Below, piece after piece: positions 11,955 to 29,444 of a stretch of 64,000 nt of DNA. The stretch's first letter is position 1; each line of letters starts with the position of its first letter. The notes below the pieces were generated by a model. The model was not told the DNA's origin. It searched no databases and saw only the letters and a list, made by a program, of their open reading frames with translations. Origin of the DNA: an uncultured Ectothiorhodospiraceae bacterium. GTDB taxonomy: Bacteria > Pseudomonadota > Gammaproteobacteria > CAMYNG01. The position numbers were made by a program, and so were the translations under genes. Location: assembly GCA_947259765.1 (NCBI GenBank), contig CAMYNG010000014.1, positions 4,549-68,548 on the forward strand, written 5' to 3'.

Positions 11955-13191
11955 GCGTTAAGTCTTCCTGTTGTTCGACCAGGTTGCGCCCACCTTGCTT
12001 GGCGCGAAACAGGGCACGGTTGGCAGCCTTGAGTACGTCCACCGAATCTGCATGGCGGCTCAGTTTTTCCGCGACCCCCACGCTGATAGTAACGGCGACA
12101 CGTCGCAATCGTGTGGTTTGGCGAGGATTGATTGGCCGCTTACTCGGCCGAACCAGTGAGCGAAGAAAAAAGGCCCTCTCGGCAACACGCTGGCGGAGGA
12201 TCTCCATCATTACCTTGGTTTCGTCACCGTCCTTGCCGGCAAATACCAGTGCAAATTCCTCCCCGCCAAAGCGGAATCCGCGCGCCGAGGTGATGCGACG
12301 AATTTCCGCTGACACCATGCGTAATACCTGATCGCCCACTTCGTAGCCAAAACTGTCATTGATTTTTTTGAAGTGATCAACATCGACAATGGCGAGCGCG
12401 TAACGGCGATTAAGTTGTGCGAGATGTTGGCGTAATGCGCGGCGGGTAGGCAGGCCGGTAAGTTCATCCAAATAGGCGCGGCTGTAGGAGTTGAGCACAA
12501 TACCTGCGATCAGGCCGATTTCCGCCAAAACAATCCAGCTACCCGTTACGTCGGGAAAGCGGTGGTAATGCAGGCCGATCATCATGGCGATGGCAGCGAA
12601 AAGCAGGCCGTTCTGTAGGCAGGAGGGCTGGCGAATACTGCGAAACAGCAACCAAAATCCGGTTACGGCGGCAAACCAAATCGCGATTTGTGGTAATTGG
12701 ATTGCGGTGATCCAGGAAGCATGCGTCAACTGTGCTTGTAACGTAAAGTAGAGCGATTGGGGCACAATTTGCATCAAGAGCAGCACCGTGCTCGCCTGGA
12801 CGACAATAATGAGCAGGCGTAACACCCCGTGACTGGAAAAGATCCCGCGCTCGCGAAGCACATCGGCAATAAAGAAATTTAGTGGCAACAACAACGCTAT
12901 AAGCCCGACCGAGAGTGTCTTCTGCATGGCATTGGCGTCCGGCGACCAGACATAAAGGCGCAGAACGGCGTACGCGCCAAGTATCAACAAAAATACACTA
13001 AATTCGCGACTCCGGTTAAAAACGACGCTCAGCCCCAGACCGCACAGCGCAAGCAGATAGATTAGCAGGCCAGGTCCAGTTGAGAGGGCGGCCGCATCAG
13101 CGGGATCGGGATGGCTCAGTGCCAGGCCGAGTAAAAACAACAAGCCGAAAACGATCAGTGAGCTGACCGATTTGTGCAGATTCAAAATCAT
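11944..13191 (-). CDS. Membrane-anchored diguanylate cyclase (multi-TM sensor domain + GGDEF)
   Basis: About 8 predicted TM helices in the N-terminal half. The C-terminal GGDEF domain carries the active-site motif GGEEF (RFGGEEFALVF). No RxxD I-site lies immediately upstream of the active site. Confidence 0.85.
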   Translation of the reverse strand: MILNLHKSVSSLIVFGLLFLLGLALSHPDPADAAALSTGPGLLIYLLALCGLGLSVVFNRSREFSVFLLILGAYAVLRLYVWSPDANAMQKTLSVGLIALLLPLNFFIADVLRERGIFSSHGVLRLLIIVVQASTVLLLMQIVPQSLYFTLQAQLTHASWITAIQLPQIAIWFAAVTGFWLLFRSIRQPSCLQNGLLFAAIAMMIGLHYHRFPDVTGSWIVLAEIGLIAGIVLNSYSRAYLDELTGLPTRRALRQHLAQLNRRYALAIVDVDHFKKINDSFGYEVGDQVLRMVSAEIRRITSARGFRFGGEEFALVFAGKDGDETKVMMEILRQRVAERAFFLRSLVRPSKRPINPRQTTRLRRVAVTISVGVAEKLSRHADSVDVLKAANRALFRAKQGGRNLVEQQEDLTLSR

Positions 13192-14262: not shown

Positions 14263-15234
14263 TTGGCCAACCTTTCAGTAGTAATCATGTCGGCATACCT
14301 CAAGTATAAAAACGGTGAAGCAATCGATCAGATACCGTGCAAGACGGTGTTAACGATCGGCCGTGACAAAAACAGCGACATTGTACTCAATGACCTGCGT
14401 GTTTCCCGTAATCACGCCATGGTCAGGCAAATCGGCCGCAGCGACTACTACTTAATCGACAGCGGCAGCGCCAATGGCAGCTATGTGAACAAACGCAGGG
14501 TGGCCATGCCTACGCTGTTGAAAAATGGTGATCGCGTCACCATTGGGAACGTGGCATTCGTTTTCGACCAGGTGAGCAAAGAGGAGGACAAGTCGGATAC
14601 GGTTTCCATGCTTGAAACGATTGTTGTAGATGGCTCCACTATCAAGCAAAACACAATTCTTGTTGCGGACATTCGCGGCTTTACTTCCCTGTCGGAAGAA
14701 GTCCATATTAAAACGCTGACCAAGTTAATGAATAGCTGGTTTCAGCAAGTCGCTGATTCTATTGTGGTGAACGGTGGAGAGGTCGACAAGTTTATCGGTG
14801 ATTGTGTATTTGCCCGTTGGGATACCGCCGAGGATCAGGAACAGACCGTTTGCCAGGCCTTAAAAGCCGCACAACAAATTAACGAGATTAGCGGTAAGCT
14901 CGGTAGTACCTTTCAGGATATAAAGCGTGAAATGAAGGTTGGCGTAGGGATCAATACCGGTTCCGCATCGGTAGGAATCGGGCAGGAAAACACGGCGCTG
15001 GGTGATGCGGTTAACGTTGCTTTTCGACTGGAGAGCGCCAGTAAGACTATCGGCAACGACGTCATACTGAGCGAATCAGTATATCGGTTTGTGCCGGAAA
15101 AATTCTGGCAAGGTAATGAGCAGGCCATTTCCGTTAAGGGCAAACAGCTTCCCGTACGCGTCGTGGGACTGGATTTTCCGCAACTAAAAAAAATCGTTAC
15201 GGTTCTTGAAAAATCACAGAAACGTAAAAATTAA
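14263..15234 (+). CDS. FHA-domain protein fused to a class III adenylate/guanylate cyclase catalytic domain
   Basis: FHA motifs are present (TIGRDKNSDIVL, SRNHA, YYLIDSGSANGSYVN). Cyclase motifs follow (VADIRGFTSLSEE, KFIGDCVFARW, GVGINTGSASVGIGQENTALGDAVNVAFRLES). An alternative start lies at 14287. Confidence 0.85.
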   Translation: MANLSVVIMSAYLKYKNGEAIDQIPCKTVLTIGRDKNSDIVLNDLRVSRNHAMVRQIGRSDYYLIDSGSANGSYVNKRRVAMPTLLKNGDRVTIGNVAFVFDQVSKEEDKSDTVSMLETIVVDGSTIKQNTILVADIRGFTSLSEEVHIKTLTKLMNSWFQQVADSIVVNGGEVDKFIGDCVFARWDTAEDQEQTVCQALKAAQQINEISGKLGSTFQDIKREMKVGVGINTGSASVGIGQENTALGDAVNVAFRLESASKTIGNDVILSESVYRFVPEKFWQGNEQAISVKGKQLPVRVVGLDFPQLKKIVTVLEKSQKRKN

Positions 15235-15948: not shown

Positions 15949-16464
15949 CTATTTTGCGGAGGAAATGTAACGCGACAGATCGGGCAGCCGGTGTCCCTTA
16001 TATTTGATCTGTCCATCCGGGGCAACCAGGACAATTGTCGGGGTCGCTGCCAAACTGTATTTTTCAATTACGTTTTCCTTTTGCTCGTCGTCATTCAGGA
16101 CGAGGTAGGGAAGTTTGTTATCACTGACAAACTCCTTTACCTCAGTGCGATTTTCATAACCGATGTTAACCGCAACGAGTGTAAGACCTTTCTTGCGATA
16201 TTGTTCATGAATGTTTTTAAATTGCGGGATCATCGCATAGCAGTAGTGGCAGCGAGTGGACCAGAACAATAACAACACGTAGCCTTTTTTCCGCAACTGC
16301 TCCAGGCTGTGGGATTTACCTCGTAAATCAGACAGTGAAAAAACCGGAGCAGTGTGACCTGCGCCGACGCCGACCTGCTCGTTGGTCGCCGCCAAGGGCA
16401 GGGCCGTGTGCAGTAGAAATATCAACGCAATTACTGATTTTGAGTACATGGATTTGACAAGCAT
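15949..16464 (-). CDS. TlpA/redoxin-family thiol:disulfide oxidoreductase (periplasmic thioredoxin-like)
   Basis: CxxC motif in the thioredoxin-fold context LLLFWSTRCHYCYAMIPQF. The signal-peptide-like N-terminus is MLVKSMYSKSVIALIFLLHTALPLAA. The ORF track extends to 16530. Confidence 0.8.
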   Translation of the reverse strand: MLVKSMYSKSVIALIFLLHTALPLAATNEQVGVGAGHTAPVFSLSDLRGKSHSLEQLRKKGYVLLLFWSTRCHYCYAMIPQFKNIHEQYRKKGLTLVAVNIGYENRTEVKEFVSDNKLPYLVLNDDEQKENVIEKYSLAATPTIVLVAPDGQIKYKGHRLPDLSRYISSAK

Positions 16465-16638
16465 AGTGAATTTTCCGCAGATTTGCCTGTGACATGATAC
16501 ACAAGACCGAACATCGATTGTATTCAACAATCAGGATTACAGCGTATATTCACGGCTGACCGAATCACCTGCCGGTTTGCGACGTGGACAGGCGGAATTC
16601 GTTAGCGAACTGTTTTAAAATTCGCGCTACGGGAATAA

Positions 16639-17370
16639 ATGTACCGGAAGGATTCTGGAGGTTTGGGTACAGTGGACACCGCAGTAATGGCATTGGCCAC
16701 GTTTGGGGGGCCCATTTTGTTACTTTTAGTGGGCGCGGGCCTGGGATTCGCTGCTTACCGGGTGTGGCGTGATTACGGACAATATTGGCGACCCATGCGA
16801 CGGTTGACCCGCAATTGGTTGCACGAGATACAGTTGCCTGGTGGGCCGGACGGCGATACGTTCGTAGAACACGTGGCGTTGCTACCTGGCGGCCTACTGG
16901 TTCTGCACATAATGGATTTTAACGGTGCCATTTTTGGCGCGCGCAATACGGATTTCTGGACCCAAGTGCTGGACCGTCGTAGTTATCGATTTCCGAATCC
17001 CTCTGAGAAACTTAAGGCCACAACCGGAGCCGTGCGCGCGGCCGTTGGTGATGAACAGGTCGTCGGTCACATTGTTTTTTCCGATAGTTGCTCCTTTCCC
17101 AAAGGCATTCCGGAAGGCGTTTCCACGGCGCGTGAGTTGACAACCGTACTTGAGGACCTGGCCCTTGGAACGGTTTCCGAATCGCGCCGTGAAGCCTGGG
17201 ACGGGCTCAAGAACCAGGTGAGCGGGCCGCAGTCAGGGAAAACTTCGAGCTCGTATTTGGGTAACTGGAACCGGTTCGTATTTCGTGCGATTCTGGCACT
17301 TGGGCTGGTTCTAAGCTCTATTCTTTGGTCCGGGTGGGTGATTTGGCAGACTAACTTCAACGACATTTGA
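16639..17370 (+). CDS. Membrane-anchored NERD (nuclease-related domain) protein
   Basis: N-terminal TM helix followed by the NERD-like core FVEHVALLPGGLLVLHIMDFNGAIFG. A second C-terminal TM segment is present. Confidence 0.55.
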   Translation: MYRKDSGGLGTVDTAVMALATFGGPILLLLVGAGLGFAAYRVWRDYGQYWRPMRRLTRNWLHEIQLPGGPDGDTFVEHVALLPGGLLVLHIMDFNGAIFGARNTDFWTQVLDRRSYRFPNPSEKLKATTGAVRAAVGDEQVVGHIVFSDSCSFPKGIPEGVSTARELTTVLEDLALGTVSESRREAWDGLKNQVSGPQSGKTSSSYLGNWNRFVFRAILALGLVLSSILWSGWVIWQTNFNDI

Positions 17371-17864: not shown

Positions 17865-18377
17865 TTGCCGGTGTCCGAGGTTTACAGGGAAGGAAAGTAC
17901 GAACAATTGATGATGTCAAACGGTATCAAGCTGCTTGTCATTGCGATTGCTGCATTTTTTGCAGCAAGTGCGCTGGCTGCGCCGCCGGTTGCTGCGCCAA
18001 CCAAGGGCTATGTTGCGCGCTCACAATTTACTACGGAAATTGTTGACCGCGAGCCCATCAATCGAGTGCTTGTGTTGGCAAATGATGTTCGTGAGGTTTT
18101 CTTTTTTACCGACTTGCGTGGCCTGGATGGGCAGACTGTTACCCACCGCTGGGAGCACAATGGTAAAGTGGTTTCTACAGTCGAGTTCAAGGTCAAGGGT
18201 CCGCGCTGGCGAGTATTTTCACGCAAGGACCTGGACCCGTTTGCTTTGGGAAAGTGGACCGTTGTTGTGACGGACGCAAACGGCTGGCCCATTAAAGCCG
18301 TTATATTTAAGTACGTGGATCCTGCACAAAGCAGCGACATGCAAGAAATCATACTGCCGCCGGAGGGTGAAAACTAA
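17865..18377 (+). CDS. Secreted DUF2914-like protein
   Basis: A signal peptide follows the alternative start at 17913 (MMSNGIKLLVIAIAAFFAASALA). The C-terminal segment FFFTDLRGLDGQTVTHRWEHNGKV...WRVFSRKDLDPFALGKWTVVVTDANG resembles DUF2914. Confidence 0.5.
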   Translation: MPVSEVYREGKYEQLMMSNGIKLLVIAIAAFFAASALAAPPVAAPTKGYVARSQFTTEIVDREPINRVLVLANDVREVFFFTDLRGLDGQTVTHRWEHNGKVVSTVEFKVKGPRWRVFSRKDLDPFALGKWTVVVTDANGWPIKAVIFKYVDPAQSSDMQEIILPPEGEN

Positions 18378-18412: not shown

Positions 18413-21400
18413 TTACGGCCGTTCGAGGATTGTCTCCTCGACATCCGTTGTAGGTAATATTTCGTCAGACCCCACTGCCGGTTCTTGCTGTTCCGTTGAG
18501 AGTTGCTGTTTCCACTTCGATAACAAACGTTGGTATTCCGATTCCGCCTCATCCCTGACGCGCGTATTGGCGTGACTGCGTGCTGCCGCCATGCCAGCCA
18601 GTTGTTTGTCGCGTTCGGCTGCTGCGGCAGCGGCAGCGACAGCGGCGTCGACTTCTTCCGGTTTTTTCGTGTGCGTCTCTTGCGGTTCAACCCAGGACGC
18701 CACTTTTTCGACGTCAACATAGGTTTCACTGTTTATGGCGACAAAGCCCAGCACGCCTACCATGACCACACTGGCGGCGATGGCAATCACCGAACGTTTG
18801 TGGCGTTTGAAGGCGGATTCCTCGCTACTGTCCTTATTCTCCTGGGGGCCCGGTCGAACGGCGTTTATGGGCGCCAGTGAGCTGAAGTCATACTCGCTGC
18901 CGTCGCCATCGGTGATCTCGATTTCGTGCGAATCGGCGGAGCTGTTTACCGTGAACGACGGAATATCGTCATCCTGCTTTTTCTTGCTACGAGCGGAGCG
19001 CGTGGGTCGCTGTTCATCAGCCGCGGTAGATAAATTCGGGATATCATCGTCTTCATCGTCCTCATCATCGATCTCCTGGACGGATTTCGGACGTTGGAAA
19101 ATGAAAATGTCTTCTTCGCCCTCAAGTATGGTTCTGCCCTTGACTTCGCGAACCTGCGTACGGGCCAGCGACATGCCGTCGGCAACCGTACCGGGCTCCG
19201 TTACCTGGCGCTGTCTATCGGCTTCGTGCAGCTTGCTGACAATCTCCTCCGCCATTTCTCGTGCCTTGGCTTCGGATTGCTCACGCGCAGCCTGACGGCG
19301 GCGCTCGGCTTCGAGGCGTTCACGGGCTTCCTGTTCGGCCTGAATCGCTTCCTCTGCACGTCGGCGCGCCTCAGTCTCGGCTTCGGCCTTGGCGCGGGCG
19401 GAGTTCTCTGCCTGGCGGCGGGCTTCTGCTTCGGCTTGGGCCCTGGCGGCGGCCTCCGCTTCGGCACGCGCGAGTTCAGCGGCTTTGGCTTCGGCACGTG
19501 CACGTTCCGCGGCTTCCGCCGCTTCGGCCCTGGCGCGTTCTGCAGCTTCACGCCTGGCCTGTTCGGCCTGGGCTCGCTCGACGGATTCGCGCTCGACCTG
19601 GGCACGCGCTGCGGCTGCGGCTTCGGCACGGGCCCGTTCCGCGGCTTCGGTTTCGGCTTCGATTCGTCTGCGCTCGGCGGTTTCTGCTTCAATCCGGGAG
19701 CGCTCGGCAACTTCGGCTCTGGCACGTTCCGCAGCTTCGGCTTCCGCACGGGCCCGTTCTGCGGCTTCCGCTTCAGCCTTCGCACGTGCCTGGGCGGCGG
19801 CTTCGGCTTCCATTTTGGCGATGGATGCGCGGGCGGCGGCGGCCTGTGCTTCGGCTGCTTCCTCCGCCTCGCGACGAATACGCGCTGCGGCTTCAGCTTC
19901 CTCACGCGCCTTGGCGGCTTCTTGGGCCATTTGCTGACGGGTGAGGGTCAACTCGTTACGTAAACGCTCGGCTTCTTCGCGGGCCTGCTCCCGAATGGCT
20001 TCCGCTTCAGCGCGTAGACGTTGGGCATCCTCTTCGGCCTGCGCGCGGGCGGAGGAAGCGGCTTGCGCGGCGGTCAGCGCTTCGTCACGCGCAGTTTGAC
20101 GCTCGGCCTCGAGTTCTTCCTGTCTTTTGGAAGCCTCTTCGGATTGTGTCCGGATACGAGCCAGTTCTTCCTCTGCCAGTTTGCGTGTGGCCGAGGCATC
20201 GGCGCGCAGTTTTTCGGTTTCCGCCACCGCTTGTTGCTTGGTGAGTTCGGCGTCCTGTTTCAGGCGTTCCGCCTCAGAGAGGGCCTGTTTACGCAGTTCT
20301 TCGGCTTTTTGAGCCCGCTTGGCCTCTTGTTCGACACGTTGCTTGGCTGACTCCAATTCACGGTTGTAGCGGTTTTGGTTTTCTTCCAGTCGTTTGGCTT
20401 CGGCAAGTGCTTGTAGCCGAGCTTCCTCGGCCTTTTTCGCGCGTGCCGACTCTTTTTCGGCACGTTTGCAGGCGGCGTCAAGTTCCGCGGTGTAGTGAGT
20501 TTTTTGCATGCGCTGCATGCGTTCGGCTTCATCCAGCGCTTTCTTGCGCGACTCCTCGGCCTTCTTGGCGCGTTCGGCTTCCGCTTCGGCGCGTTTCCTT
20601 GCGGCCTGCAGTTCACGGTCTTTTTTCGCCTGGTTTTGCTTTTTGATCTTTTCCGCGTCTTTCAATGCCTGCTGGCGCGCTTTCTCTGCTTCCTCTGCGC
20701 GTCGAGCCTGCTCCGAGGCGTGTTTTCGCGCGGCTTGAAGCTCCGCCTCTTTACGTGCAATTTCTTCTTTCTTCAAATTTTCCAGTTCGCGTCGTGCTTC
20801 TGACTTTGCAGCTTCCGCCTGCGCGGTTTTTTCCGCCAGGTCTTTCGCCTGCTTGCGTAATTGTTCCGCCTCTTCTTGCAGCTTGGTGCTGGCCTCGTCC
20901 GCGATCACGGTCTGTTTTTGCGCAACGGTTCTAACCGAGTCTTTAAAACCGCCTGAAGTTGTACTGGGTTTTGAGCTCGTGTCGCCAGACTTCGGTTCTT
21001 CGGTGGGCGTTAACGGTTTCTGTCGCGGTTTAAGAGTGGATTTCTTTTTTGCTTTCGCAGGCTTTGACTCCGCTTCGAGGTTGACGATATTGCCATCTTG
21101 TCCGGTGGTGGCCAATTTACTTACGTTGAGACCGCCTTGTAGCACCTTGCACTTAAGGCCCTGCTGCGTCAGTAAAAACGCCGCCGCAGCACTTAAGGTG
21201 CCGTCGTTGCAATAAAGGATATAGTCGCGTTCCGGATTCAAAGAGTTCACCCGCGTCCGCAATGCGGACAGGGGGATATTGGTCGCGCCGGGCAGAGTGT
21301 TCTTCTGGAATTCAGCGTTGGTGCGCACGTCGAGCAGATAACTTCCGCCATTGATTAACGTTGTCGCGGAGGCGTCATCGATATAATCCAGCAATGGATC

Positions 21401-22243
21401 CACAAGTAGCGGAATAAAATCGTCCTTGTGCAGGCGCATTAACGTGCCGTCTTCCAACATTGTCACGGTGGCATTACGCTTGCCATTCGTGATCAGGGCT
21501 TCTTCACCAAAACCGTCGCCGTTGGACAGAATTGCGAGCCGCACATCTGACGCTTTACGCGTTGGTCGGCGCGAAACGGCGCATTCGCCTCGTTTGACAA
21601 TGTAATAGTAGTCATCATCTTCACCCTGCTTGACGATAACCGATCCCTTTTTGGCTCTTATCTCTTCCATGCTGATAAGCAGACGCTGAATGTTTTCCGT
21701 CGGCAGATGCAGGAAGGTGCTCGATTGCAGAAAGCGCAGCATCCAGTCGTTGGTCTGGTCTTCTGCGCTGTGTTCGGTCACCTGGTAGGAGTCGAAGGAA
21801 TGATCGCCACACAACAGGATATCGAGTAAGTCCGGGTCGACCACAAACACCGTAACGGGTGTTTTTGCTCTGGCGGTGCAGCAGCGTGGCAGTTTGTCTG
21901 AAATCGCTTTGACAGTGTCGGGCGTTTTGGCCTTGATTAGTGTGGTGCGCGGCTTACCGATCTCGGAGAGTTCGATCTGCCCCTGCATGAGGAAGAAGTG
22001 ACGCTTGTCGCGTTCGCCCTGGCGAAACAAAGTCCGTCCGGCCGGATACTCCTCAATGGAAGATTTATCTATAATTTCTTCGAACTTGTCGGCCGTCAAT
22101 TCATTGATCGGTTCGAAGGTTCGCAGCATTTTGCGATCGACTTGTTTTTGCGGTTGTGCCATTTGCCTGTCCCGGGCGCGGTGATCCCCAGCGTCTAGAG
22201 TGAGTGAGTCATCGTGCTTTGTCGCGAAAACCAAAATACCCAA
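18413..22243 (-). CDS. Giant multidomain protein: 2x cNMP-binding domain, rhodanese domain, ~600-aa Ala/Glu/Arg/Lys coiled-coil repeat (TolA-like), C-terminal TM anchor and short periplasmic tail
   Basis: CAP-family cNMP-binding motifs appear twice (FRQGERDKRHFFLMQGQIEL; VIVKQGEDDDYYYIVKRGECAV). A rhodanese active-site loop is present (YILYCNDGTLSAAAA). There are long runs of AEAEAAERARAEAE repeats, and a single TM helix SVIAIAASVVMVGVLGFVAI near the C-terminus. An alternative start (MAQPQKQ) lies at 22162. Confidence 0.85.
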   Translation of the reverse strand: MGILVFATKHDDSLTLDAGDHRARDRQMAQPQKQVDRKMLRTFEPINELTADKFEEIIDKSSIEEYPAGRTLFRQGERDKRHFFLMQGQIELSEIGKPRTTLIKAKTPDTVKAISDKLPRCCTARAKTPVTVFVVDPDLLDILLCGDHSFDSYQVTEHSAEDQTNDWMLRFLQSSTFLHLPTENIQRLLISMEEIRAKKGSVIVKQGEDDDYYYIVKRGECAVSRRPTRKASDVRLAILSNGDGFGEEALITNGKRNATVTMLEDGTLMRLHKDDFIPLLVDPLLDYIDDASATTLINGGSYLLDVRTNAEFQKNTLPGATNIPLSALRTRVNSLNPERDYILYCNDGTLSAAAAFLLTQQGLKCKVLQGGLNVSKLATTGQDGNIVNLEAESKPAKAKKKSTLKPRQKPLTPTEEPKSGDTSSKPSTTSGGFKDSVRTVAQKQTVIADEASTKLQEEAEQLRKQAKDLAEKTAQAEAAKSEARRELENLKKEEIARKEAELQAARKHASEQARRAEEAEKARQQALKDAEKIKKQNQAKKDRELQAARKRAEAEAERAKKAEESRKKALDEAERMQRMQKTHYTAELDAACKRAEKESARAKKAEEARLQALAEAKRLEENQNRYNRELESAKQRVEQEAKRAQKAEELRKQALSEAERLKQDAELTKQQAVAETEKLRADASATRKLAEEELARIRTQSEEASKRQEELEAERQTARDEALTAAQAASSARAQAEEDAQRLRAEAEAIREQAREEAERLRNELTLTRQQMAQEAAKAREEAEAAARIRREAEEAAEAQAAAARASIAKMEAEAAAQARAKAEAEAAERARAEAEAAERARAEVAERSRIEAETAERRRIEAETEAAERARAEAAAAARAQVERESVERAQAEQARREAAERARAEAAEAAERARAEAKAAELARAEAEAAARAQAEAEARRQAENSARAKAEAETEARRRAEEAIQAEQEARERLEAERRRQAAREQSEAKAREMAEEIVSKLHEADRQRQVTEPGTVADGMSLARTQVREVKGRTILEGEEDIFIFQRPKSVQEIDDEDDEDDDIPNLSTAADEQRPTRSARSKKKQDDDIPSFTVNSSADSHEIEITDGDGSEYDFSSLAPINAVRPGPQENKDSSEESAFKRHKRSVIAIAASVVMVGVLGFVAINSETYVDVEKVASWVEPQETHTKKPEEVDAAVAAAAAAAERDKQLAGMAAARSHANTRVRDEAESEYQRLLSKWKQQLSTEQQEPAVGSDEILPTTDVEETILERP

Positions 22244-22318
22244 AATAATTAGGGTTTTGGGGATTTAAACAGCCGAATCTCCCCTCAATGAATCTTAGAA
22301 GACAATTCATGTCTTCGT

Positions 22319-22334
22319 TGTGACTGCCTTCACA
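22319..22334. promoter_or_regulatory. Perfect CRP/FNR-family palindrome TGTGACTGCCTTCACA upstream of the giant cNMP-binding protein gene
   Basis: The sequence matches TGTGA-N6-TCACA exactly. It lies ~76 nt upstream of the 22243 start codon (minus strand) in the tonB/giant-gene intergenic region. An adjacent 8-bp inverted repeat GAAGACAATTCATGTCTTC lies at 22298-22316. Confidence 0.55.
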
Positions 22335-22397: not shown

Positions 22398-23360
22398 TCA
22401 GGAGGGGAGAAATACGACCGGGTAGGTGACGGTAATGGTGCCGACGCTTTTACTGCCAAAATTGAACAGTTTTATTCGCGACATCAGACGTTTTTCCAGC
22501 GCAGGCGAGTTGAGTTCACTTGAAACAACACTGATTTTAGTGATTTTGCCTGACGGGGCGATAGTCAGTTTTAACACCAGTTTGCCCTGCAGCGAGGGGT
22601 CGGTACGGAGTGCCCGGGAGTAGATCCGATCAATGGCGCCCTTGTTCTTATCAAAGATCAGCTGAATTTCCTCGTCCGTACGCCCGGCCTTGCGCGACTT
22701 TTTGCCGCCCAGGGTGCTTTGGTTTTTGCTGCTGATGTTGCTGGAGACCTTGGTGGACTCGCGTTTCGCCAGCTTTGTGGACTCCGCGGTACGGGCCATG
22801 CTGCCAGTATTGATGCCGCCGGACGCAGTGCCCGCGCGTGCAGTCAGGAGCGACTCCGTACCGGTACCACTGGCGGTTACCGCGGCCGCGCTTTGACTTA
22901 GCTGCCCTTTGCTGGTGCTGCTGACGTCAAAATCATCCCGCAAGTCAGACAATTCGTCCGTCCACGCTAGTGCTTGCTGTGCCTTCTTACGTGCCGCTTC
23001 GGAGGTATCAACCTTGGGCTTGGGCTTGGGTTTCGGTTTGGGTTTTTCCTTTTTGGCGACCTTTTCTTTCTTCTTCACCGCTGGTTTTTTCTTCTCAACC
23101 TTGGGCTTCGGTTTGGCCTTGGGTTTTGGCGGCGGTGGAGGTGGTTTCTGCTGCCGTTCAAGGATCACCTTGGCCAGACGCGGTGGAACTTCCTCAAGTT
23201 TTTGTCGGTCTACCTCAGGCACAGGCAGGATTGAGAGAATGATACCGAGCAAGGTCGCCACAAGTAGGCTGGCGACCACCATGCGTTTAAAACGAATATC
23301 GGTGTCAAGATCCGCCCACGGCAGGATGGGATCACGAACATAGTAGTCCGCATAGGCCAT
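22398..23360 (-). CDS. tonB: Energy transducer TonB (Pro/Lys-rich spacer, C-terminal TonB domain)
   Basis: N-terminal TM helix, a PPPPPPKPKAKPKPKVEKKKP spacer, and a conserved C-terminal TonB-fold segment (GKLVLKLTIAPSGKITKISVV...GTITVTYPVVF). Confidence 0.85.
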   Translation of the reverse strand: MAYADYYVRDPILPWADLDTDIRFKRMVVASLLVATLLGIILSILPVPEVDRQKLEEVPPRLAKVILERQQKPPPPPPKPKAKPKPKVEKKKPAVKKKEKVAKKEKPKPKPKPKPKVDTSEAARKKAQQALAWTDELSDLRDDFDVSSTSKGQLSQSAAAVTASGTGTESLLTARAGTASGGINTGSMARTAESTKLAKRESTKVSSNISSKNQSTLGGKKSRKAGRTDEEIQLIFDKNKGAIDRIYSRALRTDPSLQGKLVLKLTIAPSGKITKISVVSSELNSPALEKRLMSRIKLFNFGSKSVGTITVTYPVVFLPS

Positions 23361-23872
23361 CAGTTAACACCTCCAGCGGAACTTGACCGTTGTACGACCG
23401 CAAGGGAGATATCCGGAAAATTCGCCTGCGCGCTGGTTTGCATGATGCGTTTCAGGAGTTTGTAGGGAATCTCCCGATCACCCACGATGGTGATCTTGCC
23501 GCGCTTCTTCGCATCCTGACCTGCGCGTGCTGCACGCGCCGAGTGAAAGTTCAGTTCTGTGAGCAGCGGTTTGATGACGCCCTTGCCGCCGTTTGTCGCT
23601 TTGTCGATGCTGACGACGGGACGACCTTGCACCAGGATATCCGACTCATTGACTAAGATCGTGACGGTTTCCTTGGGTTTTTGTTCGGCACTCGATTCGG
23701 GTAATTTCACCGATTTGGTGCTGGGCAATACCTCGACTTCGGAAGAATTGACCAGCAGGAAAAACACCAGGATGGTAAAGATGTCCATCAGGGAAACCAT
23801 GTTCAAGCCTACATTGCGCTTTTTACGCTTGTAGTGCTGTTGCATCCGCTTTGCGCGGCGTGACATTTTCAT
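23360..23872 (-). CDS. exbD: Biopolymer transport protein ExbD/TolR (copy 2)
   Basis: The pattern INVTPLVDVMLVLLIIF typical of ExbD is seen as GLNMVSLMDIFTILVFFLL. Length ~170 aa. Confidence 0.85.
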   Translation of the reverse strand: MKMSRRAKRMQQHYKRKKRNVGLNMVSLMDIFTILVFFLLVNSSEVEVLPSTKSVKLPESSAEQKPKETVTILVNESDILVQGRPVVSIDKATNGGKGVIKPLLTELNFHSARAARAGQDAKKRGKITIVGDREIPYKLLKRIMQTSAQANFPDISLAVVQRSSSAGGVN

Positions 23873-23890
23873 GGTGTTTATTTCCTGCTC

Positions 23891-24397
23891 TTAACGGCTT
23901 TTGGTCGTGCGCGGCGCGTCGCCAATGGAAATGTCCGGAAACAATTCAGCGTTAATAGCCTCGCCGAACTGCACGCTCTTAAACATGCGCACGGAATCCA
24001 TGACCTGGACCAGGGTGTCGTAGGACGTGTCCGGCTCAGATAAAATACTGGCGGCGGTTTTATCCGGGAAACGCGCTTTGACCTGTTGCAAAAGCTTGGA
24101 GAGCGCAACGTAGTCATGCTTATCGCTTTTTTTCGGGATGCGTTTAATCAGGCCGCCGCGTGAGTCGGCAATCTCCAGCGCCGGATCGCGGATAATTACT
24201 TGTAGGTGGAACTCCGGTTTCTCTGCACCCTTGGCGGTATTCCCCGTGGGGAGATTGAGTTGCAGGATCGCAACCCGCGAAAATACGGCCGTGATCAATA
24301 GGAACGGTACCAGGATCACCATCAGGTTCATAAACGCGGTGATATTAAGTTCGGCGGCCTCTATGCTACGGCTGCGCCTTGCTCGAAAACGTCGCAT
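23891..24397 (-). CDS. exbD: Biopolymer transport protein ExbD/TolR (copy 1)
   Basis: ELNITAFMNLMVILVPFLLI TM motif. Length ~168 aa. Confidence 0.85.
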   Translation of the reverse strand: MRRFRARRSRSIEAAELNITAFMNLMVILVPFLLITAVFSRVAILQLNLPTGNTAKGAEKPEFHLQVIIRDPALEIADSRGGLIKRIPKKSDKHDYVALSKLLQQVKARFPDKTAASILSEPDTSYDTLVQVMDSVRMFKSVQFGEAINAELFPDISIGDAPRTTKSR

Positions 24398-24399
24398 GG

Positions 24400-25041
24400 T
24401 CAGGAGCTAGTGGTCTTGTCCGTGATCAGGTTGACGAATTTAACGCTCGCCATTTCCAGACTATCGACGATTTCCGTGGTCTTGGTTTGAATCACCGTGT
24501 ACACAAGTAAAAGCGGAATCGCGACCATCAAACCAAACGCCGTGGTGTTCATGGCCACCGAAATACTCGATGACAACAAGTCGGCTTTTTGCGACGGGTC
24601 GGCATTGGATACTGCGGTAAAGGCCTGAATAAGACCGATGATTGTGCCCAGAAGTCCCAGCAGTGTCGCAATGTTGGCAAAGGTCGCCAGATAGTGAGTA
24701 CGTTTCTCCAGCCGCGGCAGGACTTCCATCATGCCTTCTTCCATGGCCATCTCGATATCATCACGTCGTTTGGCAGTTTTCATTCGCGCCAGGCCGTATG
24801 ACAGGATCTGGCTGATAGCCTGATTGGATTTCGACGTGATGTTGAATGCGCCCTGGTAATCGCCGCGTTTTAACATCGGCAGGATTTTGTTCATGAGCCT
24901 GCGGTTGTTGGTCTTGGCAACGGACAGGTAAATGTAGCGTTCAAGTGCAATTGCAACGCCGAGCGCGAGTACCAACATGATGGGGTACATGAAAAGTCCG
25001 CCTTCCTGAAAAAAGCCGACAATACTGGTGTACACGTTCAT
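24400..25041 (-). CDS. exbB: MotA/TolQ/ExbB proton-channel family protein
   Basis: Three TM helices. The conserved C-terminal channel region is TLLGLLGTIIGLIQAF...AFGLMVAIPLLLVY. Confidence 0.9.
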   Translation of the reverse strand: MNVYTSIVGFFQEGGLFMYPIMLVLALGVAIALERYIYLSVAKTNNRRLMNKILPMLKRGDYQGAFNITSKSNQAISQILSYGLARMKTAKRRDDIEMAMEEGMMEVLPRLEKRTHYLATFANIATLLGLLGTIIGLIQAFTAVSNADPSQKADLLSSSISVAMNTTAFGLMVAIPLLLVYTVIQTKTTEIVDSLEMASVKFVNLITDKTTSS

Positions 25042-25203
25042 TCCTAAATCTCCCAGTACATTTTACTAAATGTGTGTAAGTTGAAAGTTGGATCCGGAAG
25101 TTTTCTGGGCCAAGCCTTCGAAGTCAGCTTGCGGCCGAACCGGTTGGCGACTTTTATTTATAGTCGCCGCTGCTTTTTTAAAAACTAGGTTTTGTACATC
25201 CAT

Positions 25204-25485
25204 TTACTCTGTCAGCTGATAGTGGAATTTCACCTGGCGCTGGAACACATCCCGTTCTATGGGTGACAAAGCATCATTAATGAGCTGGTTCAGCGGTAAC
25301 TCACTGGCATTGGGTAATTCTGATTGTTGCCAGGGCACAATATACAACACTTTGGGTAACTCACGATTACCTACTACGGTAGTACCTTCCAGATTGACGA
25401 CTTCCTCGGCGTGTACCGCAGCAGACAAAAACAACGGCAGACAGGCTAGCAGGACTGGCTGAAAAAAACATTGTTTAACTCGCAC
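25204..25485 (-). CDS. Small secreted hypothetical protein (93 aa) upstream of exbB
   Basis: Signal peptide MRVKQCFFQPVLLACLPLFLSAAVHA. No recognised domain. Confidence 0.4.
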   Translation of the reverse strand: MRVKQCFFQPVLLACLPLFLSAAVHAEEVVNLEGTTVVGNRELPKVLYIVPWQQSELPNASELPLNQLINDALSPIERDVFQRQVKFHYQLTE

Positions 25486-25499
25486 TTCGATTTCCTCCG

Positions 25500-26120
25500 T
25501 TAGCCGGATTTAGCGGCACGACGTTCAATATCTACAATCCATTTCGCGACCTGCTTATCAGAATCGCCAGTTAAAGATTGATACCGCTTGTATTCCTTAA
25601 GCGCCTGTTTCGCATCTTTAAGATAAATATCATACAGGATACCAAGGTTAAGATGCGCAGATGCGTAGTCTGTTTTAATTTCCAAGGCACGTTGGTAGGA
25701 TTTTTGTGCCTCAGCAAACTTGCCCTGGCGTCGGTAAACGATGCCCAGAACGTTATGTCCAACCGCGTTGCCCGGGTTTAACGCCAGCGCCTTGGTCAGT
25801 TCCTTTTCCGCCTGCGGTAATTTATTTTCACGTAAATAAAGAATACCCAGATTAACGTGAGGTCCGGCCAATTCCGGTTGGCTGCTTGAGATTTGTTTCA
25901 AGGTAGACAACGCGCGTTGTGATTGGCCCGACTGAATAAGCGATAGCGCGTACTGGTAACGAGTATGGGTGGCCGGGGTTATCGGCGGCGGTGGCTTGCT
26001 GGCTACCACCGGCTCGGTGGTTTGGCACCCTGAAAGAAAAGCAAACACTACAAATAAAAGGAAGACTAGGGTGTTAGTGGATCTCACGTAAATACTCCTC
26101 GCTTCGCTCCTGCCGGGCAT
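25500..26120 (-). CDS. TPR-repeat lipoprotein
   Basis: Lipobox-like FLSGC and three to four TPR motifs (GPHVNLGILYLRENKLPQAEKELTKALALNP...). The start overlaps the upstream gene, so the true start is uncertain. Confidence 0.7.
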   Translation of the reverse strand: MPGRSEARSIYVRSTNTLVFLLFVVFAFLSGCQTTEPVVASKPPPPITPATHTRYQYALSLIQSGQSQRALSTLKQISSSQPELAGPHVNLGILYLRENKLPQAEKELTKALALNPGNAVGHNVLGIVYRRQGKFAEAQKSYQRALEIKTDYASAHLNLGILYDIYLKDAKQALKEYKRYQSLTGDSDKQVAKWIVDIERRAAKSG

Positions 26121-28932
26121 AGCGAACCGGTTGCAACTTAGCCAACACGGTCAAACTGCTTTTTACCCATTTGTCGTAGATGCCGTCCGTAATGCGATTC
26201 ACGTTCGTAACGTGGATGTCGATGGCCTTTTCTTCAAAGGGGAAGGCCTGTTCTTCCAACAAAATCTCGTATTGTTCAAGTTCCTCGCCTTTCAATCCTC
26301 GGGGTCGTTGCGATTTCAGCAGCGATTTTGCGAAGTCGTGATACAGCTCGCCGACCTGATAGGTGGCGGCCGTTGTAACTGCCGCTACATTGAATTCGAT
26401 CGCTTTTTGGTAGGCCTGGATGGCTTGCTGCATTAACTTTTTCTTGTTCTTCAGGCTCTTCTTTAACGGTTGGGTCAGTTTTACGCGCTTGTATGCCGCG
26501 CGCGCCGGCTCAGCGAGTTGTAGTGTGGCACTGGCGGCGATGTCCCGCGTACGCGGCGTACGACTGGCGGCCATTTTTTTGTCCACCTTGACAATATCTT
26601 TAAGCCAGTAAAAGCGTTTTTTCTGATCACCTTTTTTACCGTACAAGGCAGCTAGTTGAAAGCGCGCCTCCATGGACTCAGGCATTTTCGTGGGATACTG
26701 CTTAACGTAGGCACTGTAGGCGCGAAGGGCGTCATTGCCGCGGCCGGTGTCCTTGTACATATTGGCTGACTGCCAGAGCATGGCCATGCGGATGCTCGGG
26801 TCAGCGTGCGTGGCTGCCATGGTTTCAATTTCCCGCGCCGCCTTGCTGGTACTGCCGGTCTTGCCGTAAACAACAGCCAGTTTTTCAGTAACGCCTTGCT
26901 GAAGCTTATGGTTTTTCGGGTAACGGCGACGGAAATCCTCCAGTACGTTGGCGGCTCGCGGCCAGTCTTGCATCGTCATCAGTGCGGCACCGGCATCGTA
27001 CTGGGCAGTGGCGGCAACACTTGATCCGGGAGCTACCCGGCCGACCCGCAGGAAGTCATTGACCGCTGCCGCCATCGCGCCGTTTTCACGTCGTTCCTCG
27101 CCCTGTTTGTAGACACTTGCGGCCAGCCGCTCGCGAACTTCGGCATATTGTTTTTGCTTCGGCGAGTAAAGCTTTAGCACTTGAATGTAGGCCTGTTCCG
27201 CGTCGTTATACAGACCGCTCTCAAAATAAGCGTGTCCAAGTACTAACAGGCCGGAACGCTTCAGGTTCCGGTACTTGTTGATACTGGGAAGGGCGACGAG
27301 TTTTTGCGACGTCTCAATTGCGCGGGAATAGTCTTTGGCGTCCAACAATTCCTGGGCGGTGCGCGCATAGACCGCCGGTACGCGTTTATCGTTGGGAAAT
27401 TTTGCGCCGAACTGAAGCGCGGAGTCGATGGCCATGTCCCGAATCTGTGTATCTCCCGCCGCCGCGCGTTTTTCCAATGTTTGATAACCCACCAATGCGG
27501 CATAACCCGCCTCGGCACTTTGCTTGTGCTGCGGATATTGATAAGCGGTTTTCTCGTATTGCGCCACGGCTTCGGCGAGCCGGCCTGCGTCATTAAGTAC
27601 TTCGGCGTAGAGGAAATTAATCGACGGCGATGACGGTTCATTGGGAAATGTGCTGAGATATTGCGCGTACCAATTGGCGGCCTTTTGAAAATCAGCCGGT
27701 TTCTTCGATTTGCGTGCGACCGCATGGTAGTGAGTGGCCAGGTCTCGCAGGTGGACCATGAGTAGCGGCCGTACTTCGGTGCGCGCCTCTTCCGGGTGAG
27801 CCCGGGAAAATGCGCTGTTGGCACCATATAAAGTTACAAAGTCTTCTTTGGCAGGAAGAATAAGACTGGCGAACCCGCCCTGTTTGTATGCGTTGATGGC
27901 GCGGGTGTGGAATCCGGGTGAGCGAACGTCATCGGGATAACGCTGTGCGAAGGCAAGATAAGTATCGGCGGCGTCGCGAATGCGTTCCTTTTCAAGATAC
28001 AGTTTGCCCAGATTGTCATAGATCAGCGCCTCGTAGGGACGTGAACCGGCTTCGCGGAAGTATGCAATGACACTTTTCGGGCCGTCGAGATAGGAAAACG
28101 ACAGACTCACCACGCGCAAGGCGTCGTCGAGCACTTCCTTTTCCGCACGTGACAATTGCGGATCGGGACCGTCGAATCGTAGTTTGCCCTGCTCAAGTTT
28201 GTAATCCAGCAACTTGAAAAACACCACCAATGCATCCTGGCGTTTGCTTTGTTTGAACAGACTCCAGCCGTATTTGTACAGGGCCTTTTCATAGTAGCGA
28301 GATTTTTTGCCGGAGCGTAAAACCTGTTCGTAGGCCAAGCCTGCATCGGTAAAACGTTTGTTTACAAAAAGGATTTCGCCACGACGAAATTGCACTTCGT
28401 CGCGATGCGTTGTGTTGGGGTATTGCTGAATTAACTGGTCTAATGTTTTTAACGCATTTTTATGATCGCCCTTCAGATCGTAAGCCTTGGCCAGTTGGTA
28501 TAGCGCGTTGTCGCTACTTTTTTGTTCAGGGTAGTTGTTGATATAACTGCTGTATAAACCTATTGCGGAATCCACCGGACTGCCGCTGGCGTCTCCGTCA
28601 CCTTTGGCCATTTGATCCTGTCCCGCCTCGAGTTCGATATCAGCGAGTCGACGCATGGCTTCTCGGTAGTTCTCATCTTCAGGTGCTTTTTCGAGAAATT
28701 CCCGATAACCCGAGGCGACCACGTCGCGATCAACTTCGACTTTCTGTTCAGGCTCAAGTACAACCTTGCGCTTGCTTAGAGAGTCGATAGTCGTGTCGCC
28801 GGTCCCGGCACATGCCGACAGCGAAAGCAGCACAGCGCACAGGCACAGATACCTGAAACAAGCAAAAGCTGTTGATATTGGTGGCTTAGGGTTGCGACGA
28901 TGGTAATTGCATCGTCCTGCGTGGTTTACCAT
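26074..28932 (-). CDS. Large TPR-repeat lipoprotein (952 aa)
   Basis: Lipobox LSAC and many TPR-like repeats throughout. It is the first gene of the apparent TPR-TPR-orf-exbB-exbD-exbD-tonB operon. Confidence 0.7.
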   Translation of the reverse strand: MVNHAGRCNYHRRNPKPPISTAFACFRYLCLCAVLLSLSACAGTGDTTIDSLSKRKVVLEPEQKVEVDRDVVASGYREFLEKAPEDENYREAMRRLADIELEAGQDQMAKGDGDASGSPVDSAIGLYSSYINNYPEQKSSDNALYQLAKAYDLKGDHKNALKTLDQLIQQYPNTTHRDEVQFRRGEILFVNKRFTDAGLAYEQVLRSGKKSRYYEKALYKYGWSLFKQSKRQDALVVFFKLLDYKLEQGKLRFDGPDPQLSRAEKEVLDDALRVVSLSFSYLDGPKSVIAYFREAGSRPYEALIYDNLGKLYLEKERIRDAADTYLAFAQRYPDDVRSPGFHTRAINAYKQGGFASLILPAKEDFVTLYGANSAFSRAHPEEARTEVRPLLMVHLRDLATHYHAVARKSKKPADFQKAANWYAQYLSTFPNEPSSPSINFLYAEVLNDAGRLAEAVAQYEKTAYQYPQHKQSAEAGYAALVGYQTLEKRAAAGDTQIRDMAIDSALQFGAKFPNDKRVPAVYARTAQELLDAKDYSRAIETSQKLVALPSINKYRNLKRSGLLVLGHAYFESGLYNDAEQAYIQVLKLYSPKQKQYAEVRERLAASVYKQGEERRENGAMAAAVNDFLRVGRVAPGSSVAATAQYDAGAALMTMQDWPRAANVLEDFRRRYPKNHKLQQGVTEKLAVVYGKTGSTSKAAREIETMAATHADPSIRMAMLWQSANMYKDTGRGNDALRAYSAYVKQYPTKMPESMEARFQLAALYGKKGDQKKRFYWLKDIVKVDKKMAASRTPRTRDIAASATLQLAEPARAAYKRVKLTQPLKKSLKNKKKLMQQAIQAYQKAIEFNVAAVTTAATYQVGELYHDFAKSLLKSQRPRGLKGEELEQYEILLEEQAFPFEEKAIDIHVTNVNRITDGIYDKWVKSSLTVLAKLQPVRYARQERSEEYLREIH

Positions 28933-29444
28933 TTTCGAACTTTAAACTTCGGGCTTTCTCCACCGGCGGCGTCGGTGATCAGCAATTCAATATGGGTCGG
29001 TTCGATACCGGGACTGACCTGTTCGCTGTACTTGCCGGTGACGGAACGATGGCCCTTGCCAAAGCCGATAAACTCGGCAACAAATTCATGGCTGCCCGGC
29101 CCGAGATTTCCACTATAAATACGGTGAACGGCGCTTTTTGCCAGGGCGCCCGATTCCCGCTCCGTATATAAATGGCGCACCAGCCGCTTGCCGTCCAGCT
29201 TCAATTCCAGCGTATCGAGGGCGAACGGCTCGCGGGTTTTCGTCGCGACGTATATATTAAGGCTCGCGGTTCGCAGGCGCGGGTCGGCGTTTTCGATCTC
29301 ATCGAGTTTTTGCGCAAACGACGTTTCACCTTGCGCGTGGGCGGAGGGAAAATTCGGCAGCCCAGCTTGTAACCACAGCGTACAAGCAGCGAGGGTAAAA
29401 CACAGGGCGCGGAGGTAGATGGTTTTCAAAGGTTCAGTCACCAA
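28926..29444 (-). CDS. Hypothetical secreted protein (172 aa)
   Basis: Signal peptide. No recognised motif. Confidence 0.4.
   Translation of the reverse strand: MVTEPLKTIYLRALCFTLAACTLWLQAGLPNFPSAHAQGETSFAQKLDEIENADPRLRTASLNIYVATKTREPFALDTLELKLDGKRLVRHLYTERESGALAKSAVHRIYSGNLGPGSHEFVAEFIGFGKGHRSVTGKYSEQVSPGIEPTHIELLITDAAGGESPKFKVRKW

Follow-up and report, generated by a model that had tools for sequence, protein, structure and literature searches.

Within a 64,000-nucleotide stretch of DNA from an uncultured Ectothiorhodospiraceae bacterium (contig CAMYNG010000014.1; the whole of this stretch is called the window below), we found that a long gene on the minus strand is real and codes for a previously uncharacterised protein, a predicted receptor for cyclic nucleotides that is anchored in the inner membrane and carried on a very long helical stalk. 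The reading that we favour, with a probability of about 0.6, is that this protein is a membrane-tethered effector of cyclic nucleoside monophosphates (cNMPs), independently transcribed under the control of cyclic AMP (cAMP) and CRP, and that it belongs to a family with a common head made of a degenerate cyclic-nucleotide-binding domain (CNB-A), a second such domain (CNB-B), and a rhodanese domain.

Gene structure and domain architecture

The maximal uninterrupted open reading frame (ORF), as seen in the ORF list and its translation, extends over 18413-22243 of the minus strand, starts with a TTG at 22243, and encodes 1276 aa. An earlier note on this DNA had described this ORF without a strand; over the extent given there, it was confirmed to be uninterrupted. 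The 1276 aa are correct for the maximal ORF, but not for the likely product. Met1 is invariant in an alignment of the window protein with 24 homologues (25 sequences), and it corresponds to the ATG at 22162; the TTG is just the longest possible start. Because all 25 sequences begin at this Met, the actual start is most likely the ATG, with a product of 1249 rather than 1276 aa (residue numbers throughout refer to the 1249-aa protein) and a gap of 235 nt to the stop codon (22398) of a TonB-like gene upstream. The earlier note had placed the gene co-oriented with tonB and 154 nt downstream of it; the orientation stands, and the 154 nt apply to the TTG start.

A scan of 185,579 species genomes yielded 352 relatives, of which 80 loci were kept for the locus analyses (labels such as L001 denote these loci). 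In at least 22 other genomes, the parts follow each other in the same order within a single intact ORF (926-1235 aa), with the same motif, transmembrane (TM) helix, and tail. The sources of these ORFs are metagenome-assembled genomes (MAGs) of Chromatiales, Thioalkalispiraceae, Thiohalophilus, and Ectothiorhodospiraceae, together with an isolate, Thiohalophilus thiocyanatoxydans DSM 16326, and one closed chromosome (CP070733). Chromatiales MAGs are the nearest relatives, at 72% identity. As an alternative, the earlier note had allowed for a fusion artefact of assembly in the repetitive region. In such a case, misassembly or a frameshift would have joined a cNMP/rhodanese gene of about 350 aa to an unrelated repetitive gene. 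Stand-alone relatives of about 350 aa are indeed common, the nearest database proteins are truncated at contig ends, and one orthologue (L001/L010, from MAG GCA_024275915.1; 9983-14170 in L001) is split within its rod into ORFs of 481 and 856 aa, probably by a frameshift or an assembly error in the repetitive part. However, the same uninterrupted architecture recurs in at least 22 independent assemblies, including the isolate genome and the closed chromosome, which rules out the artefact; the conserved C-terminal motifs co-occur solely with the CNB-CNB-rhodanese head, and the tandem repeats in the DNA of the rod are short and degenerate (units of 30 and 36 nt, 2.0-2.4 copies, 78-80% identity). 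We consider the probability of a fusion to be negligible.

The domain order proposed in the earlier note (two CNB domains, rhodanese, rod, acidic linker, TM helix, and tail) agreed with the results from Pfam, composition, and hydropathy (Table 1). Pfam recognised cNMP_binding (PF00027) in two stretches (E 4e-25; 88 bits against a gathering threshold of 27.5) and Rhodanese (PF00581; E 1e-12; 48.8 bits against a gathering threshold of 22.2), and beyond these no Pfam family matched the window protein at E <= 1. The AlphaFold2 (AF2) model of residues 1-365 had a mean pLDDT of 86.8 and showed a pair of CNB beta-barrels with the rhodanese domain, an alpha/beta fold, after them. When this model was searched with Foldseek, the tandem CNB structures of PKG and PKA-R came out on top (E 2.5e-20 to 1e-19; probability 1.0), and a phmmer search of the PDB sequences gave a PKG match over residues 12-263 that spans both CNB domains (E 6e-24).

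The two CNB domains differ in their phosphate-binding cassettes. That of CNB-B is canonical (F218-G-E-E-A-L-I-T-N-G-K-R229-N-A-T-V), and F218, G219, E220, R229, N230, and A231 are invariant across the 25 sequences, showing its Gly-Glu and Arg-x-Ala to be intact; we take the Glu-Arg spacing to be the same as that in PKA RI-alpha. CNB-A has the cNMP-binding fold with a degenerate cassette that lacks the Gly-Glu. What remains is 'PRCCTARA' in the window protein and PRxxTAxA in the alignment, with the Arg replaced by His in four homologues. Since the cassette Gly-Glu is missing from CNB-A, probably only one of the two domains binds nucleotide. The conserved cassette residues, on which the earlier note had made its reading depend, are thus complete in CNB-B, but not in CNB-A.

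The rhodanese domain with a Cys loop, also recognised earlier, was supported by the Pfam score and by the alignment. The loop of the window protein reads C318-N-D-G-T-L-S and has the length of the PspE/GlpE type, and C318 is conserved in at least 90% of the aligned sequences, with Ser in its place in two (P0004 and P0006). The protein might be viewed as a cAMP-gated sulfurtransferase or persulfide carrier near the inner membrane, serving sulfur trafficking in sulfur-oxidising Chromatiales and Thioalkalispiraceae, with the rod and the anchor merely localising it. The Cys at the catalytic position fits this view, as do the canonical loop CxxGxR[ST] in the short relatives described below, where it reads C[ED]TGRRS, and the names of the hosts (Thiohalophilus, Thioalkalispiraceae, Chromatiales, and Ectothiorhodospiraceae). 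The best family matches are the single-domain rhodaneses PspE, GlpE, and ThiI-C, which have the fold in common with the window protein and a Cys in a loop of equal length (NCBIfam E 1e-8 to 2e-3); all of these scores, however, are far below the equivalog cutoffs, and the window domain is fused to CNB domains. Moreover, its loop has lost the Arg typical of active rhodaneses, the Cys itself is replaced in P0004 and P0006, no sulfur-metabolism genes are conserved beside the gene, and the short forms lie in a glnK-amtB-aroE context rather than one of sulfur. We find a sulfurtransferase role doubtful on balance; in the effector reading, the rhodanese domain is likely to be an output or an interaction surface.

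Between the head and the rod lies a basic linker that is probably disordered. The rod itself comprises 584 residues free of Pro and Gly. Its heptad signal from large hydrophobic residues is weak, and a periodicity of 3.55 residues is seen only if Ala is counted; the rod is helical and could be either an Ala-based (dimeric) coiled coil or a single helix of the ER/K type. Of the roughly 600 aa of heptad-like Ala/Glu/Arg/Lys repeats reported by the earlier note, the composition and length were thus confirmed, but the heptads only weakly. Relatives of 617-637 aa dispense with the rod and the long forms vary in its length, so it behaves as a spacer of variable length and not as a conserved functional unit.

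The same note had likened the rod to TolA domain II and considered a TolA-like tether of inverted topology, in which the rod would span or organise the envelope. There is a likeness to TolA in the long Ala- and charge-rich helix (about 580 aa, rich in Ala, Glu, Arg, and Lys) and in the TolQ/TolR-like genes next to the gene, but as far as the protein is concerned it is one of composition: NCBIfam tolA_full did not match the window protein at E <= 0.01, and neither did any TolA model in Pfam. Furthermore, the rod is predicted to lie with the cNMP head on the cytoplasmic side of the sole TM helix, which is C-terminal and preceded by positive charges; there is no signal peptide and no TolA domain III, and the periplasmic part amounts to just 106 aa. 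No homology to TolA was thus detected, the predicted topology contradicts a tether of this kind, and the absence of the rod from the 617-637-aa relatives also makes it very improbable.

The C-terminal part was modelled with AF2 over the last 265 residues, covering the motif that follows the rod, the TM helix, and a long periplasmic helix. The motif, 30 aa in length, reads GMSLA..V.EVKGRTILEGEEDIFIFQRP and contains ILEGEEDIFIF; it was modelled as a three-stranded beta meander (pLDDT ~75), and I28, L29, D34, F36, F38, and P41 of the C-terminal fragment, which belong to it, are invariant. Immediately N-terminal of the TM helix is a KRHKR sequence, with K/R/H residues on that side, and the hydropathy scan found the helix in all complete clade-1 ORFs but one (L019, under the threshold). 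In the conserved helix of the tail, A222, E225, L230, and W233 of the fragment are conserved. Judging by where the charges lie and by the fact that CNB domains are cytoplasmic, we infer a tail-anchored topology with the N terminus inside and the C terminus outside. Hydropathy, charges, and the AF2 model thereby support what had been read from the sequence earlier, namely a tail-anchored protein with an acidic linker, one TM helix, and an extracytoplasmic tail of about 100 aa.

The predicted promoter and the adjacent Glt/Agl-type cluster

A CRP-type box in the gap upstream of the gene was first spotted by eye and then tested statistically and across loci. It is a perfect match to the consensus, 157-172 nt upstream of the ATG, and the only one observed in the 64-kb window, where 0.04 would be expected. 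Each of the 31 loci of the anchored forms (31/31, long and intermediate forms together) has a box 100-230 nt ahead of the start codon (26 perfect and 5 with one mismatch), whatever gene lies upstream. In 443 kb, 40 sites deviate from the consensus at no more than one position, and 31 of them are these promoter boxes. The window showed no enrichment of CRP-like sites with two mismatches, with 10 observed where 23.6 would be expected, and only perfect and conserved one-mismatch sites were used in the argument. The predicted -10 hexamer of the window has counterparts in other loci that read TACATT, TAAATT, or TAGATT. As the TAnnnT hexamer lies 21 nt past the box, the box centre falls at about -41.5, which is class II spacing, with a predicted transcription start near 22285. 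We thus predict, from consensus and spacing, a class II CRP-dependent promoter of the gene's own. Upstream of the short soluble forms the box is largely absent and no conserved CRP box was found, and two forms of a separate FGE-type clade (see below) have a one-mismatch box at -191 and -232. A 7-bp inverted repeat, GAAGACA-tgaat-TGTCTTC (22301-22317, minus strand), is located between the CRP box and the -10 hexamer of the window; it has no T-run and is not conserved elsewhere.

The cluster upstream encodes, in this order, a 172-aa protein, a 952-aa TPR protein, a 206-aa TPR lipoprotein, a 93-aa protein, ExbB, ExbD, a second ExbD, and the TonB-like protein, and genes within it abut or overlap. 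The exbB-exbD-exbD-tonB operon of the earlier note is therefore present, but as part of a larger cluster of the Glt/Agl type, and its last member encodes a GltG/PglI-like TonB: in NCBIfam, this TonB-like protein scored 24.5 for TonB_Cterm, below the cutoff of 27.1, and 69.8 for the AgmX/PglI C-terminal domain, where the curated cutoff is 40. It also matched GltG (E 3e-18) and GltJ in NCBIfam and had no match in Pfam. The TPR lipoprotein matched GltE under the cutoff (E 1e-12), and the 952-aa TPR protein gave no GltD-specific match. A core complex encoded by aglRQS, gltD, gltE, gltG, and gltC has been described as conserved in Gammaproteobacteria, with an unknown function (Luciano et al. 2011; PMC3169522). 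The upstream gene set appears to match this complex, with the GltD match lacking and a gltC-like gene absent in the window. Such a TPR gene (~650 aa), which is not found in the window cluster (26074-29444), is present in L087 (1300-3261) and L088 (1381-3348) between the first gene of ~175 aa and the TPR gene of ~950 aa, and also, judged by gap size, in L009, L011, L018, L029, and L068.

Whether the gene is linked to this cluster was scored at this position of the genome in 29 informative anchored-form loci (long and intermediate). The cluster is directly upstream in 17 of them, at target identities of 51-72%, and absent from 12 (10 long-form and 2 intermediate), which nevertheless keep the gene with all its conserved motifs. 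Most of the cluster-less loci retain the other flanking synteny, with FAD-binding and CMAS genes on one side and DUF2914, TerB, NERD, FHA-cyclase, DUF2786, and peptidase M1 genes on the other, and an ApbE gene comes and goes with the cluster as one presence/absence block. The cluster was not found next to any short form (0/48 loci), nor in L046, the sole FGE-type locus with upstream sequence. Conversely, in L087 and L088, from two other gammaproteobacteria, the TonB-like gene is its last member and the genes that come next are unrelated, so the gene and the cluster are not linked wherever either occurs. In a neighbour-joining tree, the cluster-less loci form two nested clades plus the basal intermediates. 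The earlier question of whether linkage to tonB-exbBD is conserved thus has a divided answer, adjacency being frequent among the anchored forms and missing from the short ones.

The slot between the TonB-like gene and the target gene varies as well. It may be empty, or may hold a gene for an outer-membrane-protein-like product of 230 aa or for a PDZ-like product of 240 aa; in loci without an inserted gene, the gap is 212-532 nt. In many loci, though not in the window, the ~230-aa protein (L001 8977-9678, L084 9122-9811, and L086 3637-4332, and also L008, L013, L020-L027, and L053) is encoded directly ahead of the gene and in the same orientation. It carries a signal peptide, its C-terminal end (...G-F-x-L-x-F-x-R-R-F) resembles that of an outer-membrane beta-barrel, and Pfam gave no match for it. 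The ~240-aa secreted protein occurs in L006, L009, L012, L029, and L064, and the L009 copy shows a weak PDZ match. Co-transcription with the cluster would go with tight spacing and the lack of a promoter of the gene's own; instead, the 235-nt gap of the window holds the conserved CRP box and the -10 hexamer. Owing to this conserved CRP-type promoter, we regard the gene as a neighbour of the Glt/Agl-type cluster, neither a component of it nor the last gene of the TonB-like operon. A terminator scan and RNA folding detected no intrinsic terminator in the gap (fold z-score -1.33), so some read-through from the TonB-like gene is possible. Given that the whole region of ~25 kb is syntenic across the clade, the adjacency is clade-specific and can be explained by descent alone.

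These results bear on the proposal of the earlier note that the protein couples a second messenger to TonB/ExbBD. In its present form, this proposal would have the protein act in the cytoplasm, under regulation by cNMP, as an adaptor or scaffold of the ExbB-ExbD-ExbD-TonB-like motor next to it, coupling the second messenger to envelope work driven by the proton motive force, with contacts, for example, between its TM or periplasmic helix and the GltG-like or TPR proteins. The co-oriented, adjacent position in the window and in 17 of 29 loci is in its favour, and so is the tree, which fits a joint origin of cluster and rod with later loss of the cluster. The conserved helix of the tail is of a kind that TPR proteins bind, and there are TPR proteins among the products of the cluster. 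Shared CRP control is suggested by a one-mismatch box, TGTGACTGGCCTAACA (29610-29625, minus strand), 173 nt upstream of the cluster's first gene; a TGTGA-N6-TAACA site is found 134-190 nt upstream of that gene in the window, L004, L068, and L087, the cNMP gene not being adjacent in L087. The gene and the cluster may therefore share CRP control as separate transcripts. On the other hand, the 12 cluster-less loci with an intact gene, the single ApbE-cluster block, the variable slot together with an own promoter at every locus, the end of the cluster at the TonB-like gene in L087 and L088, and the inherited synteny all speak against an adaptor, and the published core complex includes no such gene (PMC3169522). 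The beta-motif, the ELPSF motif, the TM helix, and the periplasmic helix are conserved equally in loci with and without the cluster; their conservation points to partners at the membrane, which, we argue from this equality, are not the cluster proteins. Coupling to the motor was consequently not supported, and we hold an adaptor role to be unlikely.

A related idea casts the protein as a cytoplasmic cAMP-gated regulator of the gammaproteobacterial Glt/Agl core complex, beside the AglRQS-like motor, with its helix docking on TPR proteins, both units in one CRP regulon, and a role analogous to that of AglZ or GltJ in Myxococcus xanthus. AglZ and GltJ are cytoplasmic regulators of the Agl-Glt machinery (PMC3169522; PMC11135422), and the likeness to them is conceptual, in that a cytoplasmic regulator with a long coiled coil or a TM anchor is encoded near an AglRQS/GltG-type motor or acts on it. 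AglZ, which lacks a TM helix, contains a receiver domain, and GltJ has a TonB-C-like periplasmic domain; no sequence relationship to either came to light, though no search was aimed at one. By analogy such a regulator may be imagined, but we think it distinctly unlikely.

On the other side of the gene, a DUF2914 gene (17865-18377, plus strand) converges on its 3' end with 35 nt between the stop codons. This neighbour is kept in most long-form loci, though not in Thiohalophilus, and its homologue in L001 has a signal peptide. Four genes from the target, on the opposite strand, is a gene for an FHA domain joined to a class III nucleotide cyclase, the catalytic domain of which has P. aeruginosa adenylate cyclase CyaB as its best PDB match (E 1.4e-20). 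All long-form loci that reach far enough downstream contain this cyclase gene, the intermediate-form loci lack it, and it is perhaps a local source of the cAMP ligand; a GGDEF gene (11944-13191) lies near it. The maximal redoxin ORF (15949-16530, minus strand) has another one-mismatch CRP-like box, TGTGACATGATACACA (16488-16503), at its 5' end, close to the divergent NERD gene (16639-17370, plus strand), and in L008, L011, and L019 the DUF2914 gene is preceded by perfect or near-perfect boxes. The boxes at these two kinds of genes hint at a small local CRP regulon.

Table 1. Positions of the gene, the parts of its product, its predicted promoter elements, and its neighbours in the window
Feature	Residues	Position	Strand	Basis
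Whole gene, 1249 aa plus stop		18413..22162	minus	ORF translation; invariant M1 in 25-protein alignment; intact orthologous ORFs in at least 22 genomes
CNB-A (degenerate cassette)	~10-118	21809..22135	minus	Pfam stretch; PKG match over residues 12-263; AF2 pLDDT above 90; alignment
CNB-B	~136-257	21392..21757	minus	Best Pfam stretch; invariant cassette; Foldseek PKG/PKA-R match, E 2.5e-20
Rhodanese, single-domain	~263-347	21122..21376	minus	PF00581 above cutoff; NCBIfam PspE/GlpE/ThiI-type matches
Basic linker rich in Pro/Ser/Thr/Lys	348-405	20948..21121	minus	Composition; pLDDT below 50 from residue 354 on
Helical rod	406-989	19196..20947	minus	No Pro/Gly; 70-92% A/E/R/K/Q
Conserved cytoplasmic motif GMSLARTQVREVKGRTILEGEEDIFIFQRP	996-1025	19088..19177	minus	Conserved in all long and intermediate forms; AF2
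(D/E)(E/D)-L/I-P-S-F motif within acidic linker	1064-1070	18953..18973	minus	24 C-terminal regions aligned; F invariant
Single TM helix SVIAIAASVVMVGVLGFVAI	1124-1143	18734..18793	minus	Hydropathy scan; AF2 helix
Periplasmic tail (106 aa)	1144-1249	18416..18733	minus	Alignment; AF2
Conserved amphipathic helix RVRDEAESEYQRLLSKWKQQ	1201-1220	18503-18562	minus	Only conserved element of tail; AF2 pLDDT up to 93
Perfect CRP-type box TGTGAAGGCAGTCACA, as read on gene strand (TGTGA-N6-TCACA)		22319..22334	minus	Sole perfect match in 64 kb
Predicted -10 hexamer TAAGAT, 21 nt past box		22292..22297	minus	TAnnnT at same spacing in most of 31 aligned promoters
Glt/Agl-type cluster (context)		22398..29444	minus	Pfam; NCBIfam; core-complex likeness
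ExbB		24400-25041	minus	Pfam
ExbD		23891-24397	minus	Pfam
ExbD		23360-23872	minus	Pfam
GltG/PglI-like TonB-like protein, 320 aa		22398-23360	minus	NCBIfam
FHA plus class III nucleotide cyclase gene (context)		14263..15234	plus	Pfam FHA and Guanylate_cyc

Soluble and anchored forms of the family

The CNB-CNB-rhodanese head is widespread: a search returned 1255 proteins at E <= 1e-3, and most of them are stand-alone proteins of about 350 aa that are 40-46% identical to the window protein over ~345 aa. The family comprises four forms: short soluble, intermediate, long, and a separate FGE-type clade. The short forms have no rod, beta-motif, TM helix, or tail, and share the invariant CNB-B cassette and the rhodanese motifs. 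Their gene is found between glnK-amtB and aroE-ksgA-pdxA, with a surA-like gene further on, in 36 of the 48 short-form loci (L002 and 47 others, e.g., L033-L083), and this glnK-amtB-[gene]-aroE neighbourhood suggests that the short-form branch is linked to nitrogen or ammonium signalling. The intermediate forms (617-637 aa) have the head, an ILEAEEDIFVF motif, and the TM helix with almost no rod, and the long forms have a rod of several hundred residues.

The separate clade (L046 9995-15010, L032 192-4922, and L050 848-4794) combines the head with a Q/L/E-rich coiled coil of ~900 aa and a TM helix. The hydropathy scan detected this helix in L046, and in L032 and L050 it was recognised by visual inspection. 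A periplasmic domain of the FGE-sulfatase type (SUMF1-like) follows in L046 (Pfam E 3e-55) and L032, and L050 ends at the contig edge. The L046 gene adjoins ExeA/GspB-like, TerB, Rieske, and GGDEF genes. Taken with the window-type forms, this independent clade shows that inner-membrane tethering of the head has arisen at least twice. The C-terminal module of the window type (motif, TM helix, and tail) had 14 representatives among 1.84 billion proteins, all in this family, and every long match in its alignment (A2) bears the CNB-CNB-rhodanese head; no other head was found.

Proposed mechanism and relation to known receptors

In the mechanism that we propose for the membrane-tethered effector, cAMP-CRP would switch the gene on from its own class II promoter. 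The PKA-R/PKG-like tandem-CNB head would bind a cyclic nucleotide at CNB-B, probably cAMP and perhaps supplied by the nearby FHA-adenylate cyclase, and the binding would alter the attached rhodanese domain, either in access to its Cys or in the binding of a partner. The head would be held at the end of the rod of ~580 residues, up to ~85 nm if fully helical, which would be fixed to the inner membrane by the C-terminal TM helix, with a short conserved helix exposed in the periplasm. The binding of cAMP or cGMP, the identity of the ligand as cAMP, and the role of the rhodanese domain are inferred here from the protein sequence and its models.

Several observations weigh against this effector reading. 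One of the two CNB domains is degenerate, and catalysis may not be the output of the rhodanese domain because of the missing Arg in CNDGTLS and the Ser in P0004 and P0006. The evidence for the promoter consists of consensus and spacing; a generic promoter scan reported no sigma-70 consensus promoter in the 235-nt gap, and no crp gene lies within the 64-kb window. In addition, most of the clade has the cluster next to the gene, with target identities reaching down to 51%, and the cluster's first gene also has a CRP-like box, so the two units may be functionally linked.

Of known proteins, the regulatory regions of PKA-R and PKG have the tandem CNB-A/CNB-B fold in common with the head, as found with Foldseek and phmmer, but the identity is ~20%, the domains are oriented differently (TM-score 0.3-0.4), and CNB-A is degenerate in the window protein, which has a rhodanese domain and a membrane anchor instead of a kinase partner or an inhibitor sequence. 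CbpA of P. aeruginosa (Endoh & Engel 2009, cited in PMC11139211) is reportedly a cAMP binder that is not a transcription factor; one of its CNB domains is described as degenerate and another as functional, the cbpA gene is said to be under the CRP homologue Vfr, and the protein to be placed at a specific site in the cell. This likeness is an analogy by description, and CbpA is not known to have a rhodanese domain, rod, or TM helix. The soluble relatives of about 350 aa have the same three-domain head and lack the rod, the anchor, and a conserved CRP box; they are annotated as 'cyclic nucleotide-binding domain-containing protein' or 'CRP-like cAMP-binding protein', and literature searches found no experimental study of them. 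The statement of the earlier note that no characterised protein has this architecture held: the sequence and fold searches of the PDB returned only tandem CNBs of PKA-R/PKG and isolated rhodaneses, and literature searches on CNB with rhodanese found nothing relevant.

To our knowledge, only a small number of bacterial proteins besides the CRP-type transcription factors have been recognised as cAMP effectors, among them CbpA, mycobacterial Pat, cNMP-gated channels, and Bd1971. The domains of the window protein are known, its architecture and family are uncharacterised, and its kin are these cNMP receptors that are not transcription factors. For annotation, the gene should not be named part of a TonB uptake system, the neighbouring cluster apparently being a Glt/Agl-type core complex and not a classical siderophore TonB system. 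The analysis defines a widespread gammaproteobacterial CNB-CNB-rhodanese family with soluble forms and at least two independently anchored forms. In the anchored forms it outlines a circuit in which cAMP-CRP would turn on a protein that would itself sense a cyclic nucleotide, with an FHA-adenylate cyclase gene nearby.

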